Below, piece after piece: positions 15,001 to 18,000 of a stretch of 19,069 nucleotides of DNA (position 1 is its first letter; each line of letters opens with the position of its first letter). The position numbers are program-made. This stretch comes from Escherichia coli (GTDB lineage: Bacteria > Pseudomonadota > Gammaproteobacteria > Enterobacterales > Enterobacteriaceae), in assembly GCF_003334815.1 (NCBI RefSeq), contig NZ_QOWO01000053.1, one strand, 5' to 3'.

Positions 15001-18000
15001 CATTCTGAGGAGATACTGATATTGTGCTTTTGTCAGCCATATGCTGGAAGCCGCATTCAGCTCTTCCCTGGCTCCCGGATTTAGCACAGGGTCCGGGTAA
15101 ATCTTCATTAATCCATCAACAATATCTTTATTGACGGGTTTTATTTCACCGCCAAACTTCACGAAATCAATGAAGGCGCTATGGCGACGTAATGCCGATA
15201 CTGGTTGAATGTCAAAATTAGCCAGAATAAAAAAGTACCCTGGAAAAATAGCGAATATTCTTTCACGGTAACAGCGCCTGGAGTCTGCCCGTCTTATCTT
15301 TCTTGTTATTAATGGAGTCCATGGTACGACGTTTTGCTCATTCAGCCATGAGAATAAAGATTCTCTGTTTTTGCCGGCTGTATTATATTGCGCAAGATAC
15401 CAGTTCCGGTTATTCAGGTGTTCTATATTCACGAAGTTCAACGCTCCGCGCAAAACCGATCCATGATGGACGATTTTGCGATGTCAGGCGAATATGCTAA
15501 ATCATATGTCTGAAGCAGTGTCCAGCCCATATCTGGATAAACTGCAGTTCTGACAGGCATATAACCAGCAGACTCTAGTACGTTCTGTATCGGTGATTTG
15601 GCGAACTCACAGATAAAGAACGGCTAAGCACTAATATCAGCAATACAGTGGCACAGTATTGTGATACGCGAAATAAAACATCAGCACGTCAGTTCAGAGT
15701 AAGATCGCCATATATCGGGCATGAGCCAGATACAAATAACTGGGACACCGTCTGAAGTGATTTGCTTTATTAAAGTAACTTGTGCTTGGTGTTTATGTTT
15801 ATCAATTTGGGATCGCCTGTAAAGTGCAAAATGCAATTTCCATGAAAGTGTCCCCTTTAATGGGGACACCTGTTCACATTTTTTCGTTTTCTTTAGCTGT
15901 ATTGCTAATCATGAAAACGAAAGTTCGCATCAGCACAGCAGAGCGAAGTGCATCATATCCTTCCAGATTTAAATTCTTCAGGCTTCGCTTCAGGTAGGTT
16001 CGTACCGTTTCGGGAGAAAGCCGACAGTTCTGAGCAATGGCGTCGTAAGGAACACCCATTGCGTAAAAAACGCAGACTTTAAGCTGGTTTGTTGATAGCT
16101 CGGGAAACATGCCTTCCAACAGAGTGATGGCCGGGAGTTTCTGTATCAGTTGAGGTGACATAGCAAAGGTCTCCGATGACAACTAAAAACGCTATCACCG
16201 AGTTCCTACGCTCATTGGTGATAGCCCAGACGGGGGTAGGAATACCGGCGTCATCGGAAACCGGCCAGGCTAATGCCTGCCCCGCCTGAGCTACCATAGA
16301 TGACGACAAGAAATACAAGTTCCTGTCTTTATGGTATGGCAAAAAACGACGCCAAATGAAGAAATTAACTTCTGCGCCGACGATGACTACGCGGGTTCCT
16401 ACGCCCGATCACAGTTTTGCCTGTGACCAGTAAAGGGTACTTAGTATAACGCACCGAGTCAACTAACAGCTTAAAAAACATACAAAAAAGCGTTAAAACT
16501 TAACGCTCCGCGCCGAAGCGATCCAGGCATGATGCTTCTGCTTTGTGGCGTTCGAACATGCTGGTCCATATGCACGAAACGGTGTCTGACCCTCGTCCAG
16601 ACAATCCGCAGTTCTGACGAACATATGAACAAATATGCTCTTGTAGAGGCTGTTGTTACACAATTGGCGGGTTGTGTAACAAATGGTTTTATCATCTAAG
16701 AATTATTCTATTTACGATCGAATGATCTACAAAATGATTTTTTAAAGGTTTTTTAGATCGTTTAATCGCATTAAAACAGAATATTATTCTGTTAGGTGGA
16801 TCGGTTGTAAGATAAATGATCGTGAGTAGGACAAAAGTCGATCTTTTAATCCAAAAGAAGGATCTAAAGCAGAAAAATCTGCTTTTAAAAATAGATTTTA
16901 TTTTTTTTGACGCAGGTCAAGATTAACTTATTAGAGGTATCAGTGAGGAGGCACTGGAAGAGAAGAGATCGTTGTAATGCTTTTCAAATTAACGTAAAGC
17001 GGGTATATTTCGGCTGTTATTAGCTGTGCAGAGGGTGGCACTCTGTGGAGCAAAGCGGCGAAAGTCGGACGGCAGAATGCGCCATAAGGCATTCAGGAGA
17101 GATGGCATGTACGGGCAGTAAGTCAGAAGACTGAAGATGTTCCGGAAGCCATAAAAGGAAAACCCCCACTATCTTTCTTACGAACTTGGCGGAACGACGA
17201 AAGATAGTGGGGGCCTCACAGAATACGGGTAAAGTATAATGAAACCGTACCAGAGATTCAACCCTGTGCAGTGTATAAATACACGGCACAATCGCTCCGC
17301 CATAAGCGACAGCTTGTGGCAGGTCTGAAGAATACTCCATATAACGCAGTACACTGGAGTCAGTTAGCACCCGAAGAGCAGATCCGTTTCTGGGAAGACT
17401 ATGAAGCGGGAAGGGCGACCACTTTCCTGGTTGAACCGGAAAGGAAGCGCACGAAGCGCCGTCGCGGTGAACACTCCACCAAACCCAAATGCGAAAATCC
17501 GTCCTGGTATCGTCCTGCGCGCTATAAGGCGCTGAGCGGGCAGCTCGGGCACGCCTACAACCGTCTGGTGAAAAAGGACCCGGTGACCGGCGAGCAGAGC
17601 CTGCGCATGCACATGTCTCTGCATCCTTTTTACGTGCAGAAACGAACGTATGCCGGTCGCAAATATGCTTTCCGTCCGGAAAAACAACGCCTCCTCGATG
17701 CCATCTGGCCGGTTCTGGTCAGCTTCAGTGATGCGGGCACACATACCGTAGGCATGAGTGTTTCCCGTCTGGCCCGAGAAATCAGCCCGAAAGACAGCAA
17801 GGGGAAGGTTATTCCGGAACTGGAAGTGACGGTCTCCCGCCTTTCCCGTTTGCTGGCCGAACAGGTACGTTTTGGTGTGCTGGGTGTTTCAGAGGAAACC
17901 CTGTGGGACCGTGAAACCCGCCAGCGTCTGCCACGTTACGTCTGGATAACACCGGCAGGCTGGCAGATGCTGGGCGTCGACATGGTAAAACTTCACGAAC

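Follow-up and report, generated by a model that had tools for sequence, protein, structure and literature searches.

The rep locus and its two candidate start codons

We analyzed a 19,069-nt stretch of Escherichia coli DNA (contig NZ_QOWO01000053.1; hereafter the window), in which the replication initiator gene repZ is preceded by the leader gene repY and a set of predicted RNA elements (Table 1), with pil genes and traC-traB-traA on the minus strand making up the remainder. Over positions 16900-18400 the window was 100% identical to plasmid pUMNK88_91 from E. coli UMNK88 and 95–99% identical to hundreds of IncI1-type plasmids. ColIb-P9 (NC_002122.1) was 98.3% identical over 17140-17560 and, like R64 (both IncI1-alpha), shares an identical leader, pseudoknot partners, hairpin III and GTG start with the window, differing only by scattered SNPs elsewhere in the replicon. 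The Rfam covariance model PK-repZ (RF01087), the "Pseudoknot of the regulatory region of the repZ gene", matched end to end at 17155-17303 (194.5 bits versus a gathering score of 44). On the strength of the near-identity to ColIb-P9 and this match, the window carries, as judged by its sequence, a classical ColIb-P9-type inc/repY/repZ replicon of an IncI1-type plasmid. With its PK-repZ element and repY-type leader, it is not of the CopA/CopB/tap type found in IncFII (R1), and the annotation of the identical RefSeq record shows no CDS for a regulatory protein separating traA from the rep gene.

Table 1 Features of the rep locus in the window.
Feature	Position	Strand	Description
Candidate promoter of the repY-repZ mRNA	16981..17009	+	promoter-like site TTTTCA-17-TATATT; consensus scan only
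Stem-loop I, predicted Inc RNA target	17156..17216	+	main stem 17163-17177 with 17199-17213; apical loop UUGGCGG 17186-17192
Putative antisense Inc RNA gene	17157..17226	-	approximate, ~70 nt, ends estimated; promoter consensus scan and sequence reading
repY, leader peptide	17239..17328	+	ORF of 29 codons (MKPYQRFNPVQCINTRHNRSAISDSLWQV); overlaps both GTGs
Upstream in-frame GTG	17271..17273	+	start of the 358-aa ORF, judged non-functional; inside translated repY, in stem of hairpin 17265-17290
Predicted pseudoknot acceptor	17296..17302	+	UCCGCCA, core CGCC 17298-17301; complementary over 7 nt to UGGCGGA of loop I (17187-17193)
Structure III, predicted inhibitory hairpin	17297..17323	+	17297-17307 pairs with 17312-17323; predicted to sequester CGCC, UAAG and GUG 17316
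Weak Shine-Dalgarno-like sequence	17303..17306	+	UAAG, 9 nt upstream of GTG 17316; read from sequence
repZ, RepA-type replication initiator	17316..18347	+	343 aa, GTG start, TAG stop 18345-18347

Lying upstream of stem-loop I, the candidate promoter would fit the published layout. The putative Inc RNA gene is accompanied on the minus strand by promoter-like elements (-35 TTGAAT at 17261-17256 and -10 TATACT at 17238-17233, a consensus match only) and by a terminator-like complement of stem-loop I followed by a T run. The RepZ product matched the NCBIfam family NF040977 (RepA_IncFII_LM initiator) with 316.4 bits against a cut-off of 70 over residues 73-350 of the 358-aa form; since this match begins at residue 73 and the Pfam match at residue 187, the profiles are silent on the N-terminus.

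Mechanical ORF calling extends repZ to 17271..18347 on the plus strand, starting from the GTG at 17271-17273 and encoding 358 aa. As the earlier note had claimed, the GTG at 17316-17318 lies in the same frame, 45 nt downstream, and gives 343 aa. These two are the only canonical in-frame starts between the in-frame stop TAG 17205 and position 17460, and the calculated masses of their products are ~42.1 kDa (358 aa, MYKYTAQ...) and ~40.2 kDa (343 aa, MAGLKNT...). Because a random 15-codon stretch is free of stops with a probability of ~0.49, the open 15-codon extension is, taken alone, not unusual.

The position of repY differs in its relation to the two codons. This leader, whose translation and termination activate repZ (PMC4705826), is annotated as repY in LT985289.1 and also in pESBL, where RepY (36448-36537) and a 343-aa RepZ (36525-37556) overlap by 13 nt (PMC4288162). 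The overlap in the window is likewise 13 nt: GTG 17316 coincides with repY codons 26-27, within the last four codons, and sits 14 nt 3' of the CGCC acceptor, in agreement with the earlier description of a start just 3' of the pseudoknot acceptor and inside the end of repY. From the first base of the start to the end of the repY stop codon is 12 nt for GTG 17316 versus 57 nt for GTG 17271; the 12-nt spacing recurs at the 13 related loci compared below. Across other control modules that precede RepZ-type genes, comprising tap-like 25-aa leaders (L008, L016), the IncI2 repR leader (L009) and a truncated upstream IncFII-like repA (L014, L015), 7-19 nt separate the first base of the rep start codon from the end of the upstream ORF. 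The geometry proposed for coupled translation at 17316 was thus borne out, falling within the range of the family and matching the mechanism of ColIb-P9 (PMC4705826).

These modules were diverse in their own right. At L014 and L015 the RepZ-type gene follows a truncated IncFII-like repA ORF of 141-146 aa, which ends 7-10 nt past the start, and at L008 and L016 it is preceded by both the tap-like leader and a CopB-type gene, the latter annotated as a repressor.

Conservation upstream of GTG 17316

We compared the window with 13 related replicons (14 loci), reading the 15 codons upstream of the codon equivalent to 17316 in the rep frame. GTG 17271 was conserved at 14 of 14 loci, and the leader ORF was exactly 29 codons long at each of them despite amino-acid changes. 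The extension was open, beginning with GTG, in the IncI1-alpha type (the window, ColIb-P9, L011, L013, L018 and L022). Loci of the pO145 type and of IncK2/Z (L006, L012, L010, L019 and L023) carried TAA at the third codon (codon -13), reading GTG TAT TAA or GTG CAT TAA, and the long ORF is absent from these types because of this in-frame stop in the leader. Salmonella plasmids (L007, L020 and L021) carried a different TAA, at the seventh codon (codon -9). No in-frame start occurred between the TAA and the 17316-equivalent codon in the stop-bearing relatives, and at L007 the codon itself was ATG in place of GTG. The isolated stops arose from single base changes that are synonymous in repY (ATA to ATT in L006, L012 and L010; CAC to CAT in L020 and L021), with additional non-synonymous changes in adjoining leader codons in some other lineages.

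These stops bear directly on the possibility that IncI1-alpha plasmids truly start repZ at GTG 17271, or use this codon as a second, minor start, and so make a pseudoknot-independent 358-aa isoform of RepZ. The open frame of that group, the retention of GTG 17271 at every locus compared, and the calling of the 358-aa product by several pipelines, on at least 1000 contigs, all speak for it. Against it, close relatives with stops in the extension have rep regions 91–93% identical and are evidently viable. Such leaders are frequent: searching PLSDB with the 70-nt, stop-bearing leader of L006, we counted 406 records that match it over its full 70 nt, of which 132 had no mismatch, TAA included; counts by identity band were left unused, as partial IncI1 matches inflate them. 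The repY codons CAG-TGT, together with hairpin II, explain why GTG 17271 itself is conserved.

The IncK2/Z plasmids provide a natural boundary. Their rep modules are mosaic (L010, L019 and L023), combining IncI-type RNAI, leader and pseudoknot with an IncFII-family RepA. Homology to the window in the alignment ends a few codons past the GTG, just before the leader stop (the BLAST match reaches 17329), and is followed by the non-homologous RepA, whose annotated start maps onto 17316; the exchanged control module therefore includes the 17316 start codon.

Homologous proteins gave the same picture. A protein search with the 358-aa form returned 213 matches, and the lengths of the best 120 peaked at 337-343 aa. 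In a MAFFT alignment, 101 of 110 near-full-length homologues (at least 330 aa) began at residues 15-20 of the 358-aa form, and the first conserved motif, HWSQL..EEQIRFW, lay 12 residues after the 17316 start. One homologue with 78% identity (P0009) begins MAGLKNT, like the 343-aa form. Among the aligned homologues, the 15-residue extension was common only to a Logan-derived cluster representative and an over-extended call of 439 aa; a start at 17271 would add 15 residues conserved in no homologue. The earlier note had held that conserved residues encoded upstream of 17316 would speak against the shorter form; we found the opposite, with in-frame stops in relatives and N-termini clustered at residues 15-20. 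The 439-aa protein (P0001), a Logan gene call, prolongs the frame by 81 more codons.

Initiation region and translational control

Control elements around the start codon were strongly constrained. Five stem pairs of stem-loop I showed compensatory changes with an invariant loop among 11 distinct relatives, and the six pairs of the pseudoknot core were invariant in 11 distinct sequences; the Rfam PK-repZ model ends at the pseudoknot acceptor. Hairpin III had a minimum free energy of -18.9 kcal/mol (z = -4.3), a stability equaled by 1 of 200 shuffles. Its core pairs were invariant, the sole change being U-A in place of U-G in the relative with the ATG start, and its region holds just one in-frame start codon. 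Three further outer pairs of the predicted hairpin (17292-17294 with 17326-17328) were not kept in relatives and were dropped. A block reading CCGCCATAAGCGACAGCTT-G/A-TGGC, which forms the predicted hairpin masking the Shine-Dalgarno sequence (SD) and start, was invariant in 12 sequences despite diverged stem-loops I. At the sequence level this invariance shows a strong constraint on exactly this initiation region, the pairing itself being predicted and not proven by it. The stem that contains GTG 17271 is part of another hairpin (17265-17290), which is less conserved and lies within the translated leader.

Pairing with the anti-SD proved uninformative. Duplex energies with the 16S 3' end were -2.1 kcal/mol for GTG 17316 versus -2.9 for GTG 17271, both at the background level of random positions, and SD pairing was rejected as a discriminator between the two. 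The UAAG upstream of 17316 would fit the 'weak SD' of the literature and does not count as independent evidence.

A 2014 review by Asano describes, for ColIb-P9 and relatives, a rep GUG and weak SD that are masked by a stable hairpin, with CGCC directly upstream of the SD (PMC4705826). According to the same source, a ribosome at the leader stop exposes CGCC, which allows the pseudoknot to form and reinitiation to occur at Rep, inducing rep up to ~3000-fold, and GUG-to-AUG mutations loosen control; experiments with ColIb-P9 and pMU720 established the dependence of Rep synthesis on leader translation, pseudoknot and reinitiation (PMC4705826). Only GTG 17316 fits the description of the masked rep GUG.

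We conclude, with a probability of roughly 95%, that repZ starts at GTG 17316 through this published termination-reinitiation switch and that GTG 17271 opens an accidental extension of the ORF. The sequence elements, their conservation, the stops and the family N-termini come from the present analysis, and reinitiation, pseudoknot dependence and Inc RNA action from the literature. The start is already known, having been established by experiment in this plasmid family, and the review describes the same one (PMC4705826).

Transferred to the window, the switch would operate as follows. In the free mRNA, CGCC, the weak SD UAAG and GUG 17316 would be locked in hairpin III. A ribosome translating the 29 codons of repY would melt this hairpin and terminate at UGA 17326-17328, and the freed UCCGCCA (17296-17302) could then pair with the UGGCGGA loop of stem-loop I (17187-17193). 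The resulting pseudoknot would hold the initiation region open, enabling the terminating ribosome to reinitiate at GUG 17316. Antisense Inc RNA, by binding the same loop, would block the pseudoknot and later repY translation as well, thereby setting copy number. GTG 17271 would be no more than the earliest start-like codon in a frame that happens to be open within repY.

This architecture also weighs against initiation at the upstream codon, which lies in a hairpin stem and inside a translated leader, without an SD or a favorable context. Given that Rep synthesis reportedly depends 3000-fold on the pseudoknot, an independent start could contribute little (PMC4705826). We regard GTG 17271 as a true or minor start as very unlikely. 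The form in which it is conceivable is confined to IncI1-alpha, since the extension frame is open there: very low use of GTG 17271 would produce a 358-aa RepZ independent of both pseudoknot and Inc RNA, a basal and unregulated trickle of initiator. If true, such a trickle could serve, for example, establishment after conjugation, and the lineages with TAA would have lost it; we consider this, too, highly improbable.

Because the repY and repZ frames overlap by 13 nt and leader translation is required, one could also imagine a RepY-RepZ fusion made by ribosomal frameshifting in the overlap in place of reinitiation at GTG 17316; nothing else speaks for it. We saw no slippery heptamer in 17300-17328. 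The start codon at 17316 is strictly conserved, as GTG or, in one variant, ATG; relatives whose leaders are unrelated also have one at this position, and the literature describes reinitiation, with regulation altered by GUG-to-AUG mutations (PMC4705826). Frameshifting is therefore the least credible of the readings, and we give it almost no weight.

The rep control region of the window has close counterparts in other plasmid families. The repB-repA systems of IncB/O, IncK and IncZ (pMU720 type, I-complex) share with the window a 29-codon leader, the UUGGCGG loop and the CCGCCA acceptor, and their antisense RNAI corresponds to the putative Inc RNA (PMC10286972); the 12-nt spacing between their GUG start and the end of the leader is the same, too. 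They differ in the sequence of stem-loop I, with compensatory changes, and IncK2/Z in having an IncFII-family RepA in place of the RepZ-type protein. The IncI2 repR-repA system (pHNSHP45) resembles the window in its RepZ-type initiator, its GUG start overlapped by a short leader and its antisense RNA, a counterpart of the putative Inc RNA, and leader translation is required there (PMC8053102). In contrast to the window, an IncI1-type pseudoknot was not found by the IncI2 authors, and the leader has 19 aa as reported (PMC8053102) or 18 by our ORF trace; at the DNA level, homology to the window does not extend upstream of ~17352. In the CopA-tap-repA system of R1 (IncFII), the leader stop overlaps the rep start, as in the window, under antisense RNA control like that predicted here, but coupling in R1 proceeds without a pseudoknot step according to the literature (PMC4705826, PMC8053102).

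Annotation of repZ and neighboring elements

Both forms of RepZ are widespread in databases. RefSeq (PGAP) used the 343-aa start in every record examined, even in one rotated to the 358-aa start, and the RefSeq CDSs of pUMNK88_91 (455..1486) and ColIb-P9 begin at the same codon as repZ at 17316. Entries with the 358-aa form originate from Logan, ENA, UniRef and GenBank (for example AEE59872.1), and this form also stands beside repY in LT985289.1, a MaGe-style record. In the protein collection, at least 1000 contigs carried the exact 343-aa sequence and at least 1000 the exact 358-aa sequence, and a 358-aa RepZ is the representative of a cluster of 5373 proteins. A warning that automated annotation would probably pick the wrong start consequently held for Prodigal-type callers (358 aa) and failed for PGAP (343 aa). 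Many plasmid records are rotated to one of the two codons, so that the choice of start codon sets their coordinate origin; some are linearized at 17271 (H15-H21 and H47-H54) and others at 17316 (H22-H24 and H55-H56). In the RefSeq feature tables examined, repY was not listed, the PLSDB tables being incomplete.

For clean annotation it matters that the 358-aa RepZ has been mis-called widely and that repY usually goes unannotated. We advise the use of the 343-aa form in rep-gene typing schemes and in expression constructs and structure predictions of RepZ. The 17316 start brings no new biology and matters only for annotation.

Several further elements were observed between traA and the rep gene. 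Seven GATC (Dam) sites fall within 149 nt (16716-16864) of the AT-rich spacer that separates the traA/Hft side from the rep promoter, with 48 GATC sites in the whole 19-kb window, fewer than in shuffles. A hairpin at 16646-16690 on the plus strand (-19.1 kcal/mol, z = -4.5) looks like a terminator because a T-rich tail comes next; its apex, UUGGCGGG, contains the same UUGGCGG as the Inc-target loop, a 7-mer that is not enriched in the window (5 found versus 2.5 expected).

Among these side observations, a C4-like antisense RNA upstream of traA stands out most and appears to merit a study of its own. The Rfam C4 antisense RNA model (RF01695) matched at 16214-16301 on the minus strand (77.5 bits versus a gathering score of 45), immediately 5' of traA (ATG 16162-16160, minus strand) and within the part that corresponds to the 'Hft' region of pESBL; transposon insertions in that region increase transfer ~20-fold. 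Such an RNA was not named in the searchable literature, the Hft papers mentioning only the possible involvement of a 'small RNA'. For each of the two exposed segments of the C4-like RNA, UCCGAUGAC and UUCCUAC, complementary sequence occurs both upstream (GTCATCG and GTAGGAA) and downstream (GTCATCGGA, which overlaps the Shine-Dalgarno sequence of traA, and GTAGGAA), located on the minus strand at 16402-16396, 16387-16381, 16209-16203 and 16180-16172; assessed by a count of complementary k-mers, a single 9-nt match reaches only weak significance (38 of 2000 shuffles). We take this arrangement to be the a1/b1 - c4 - a2/b2 layout of phage P1 immunity.
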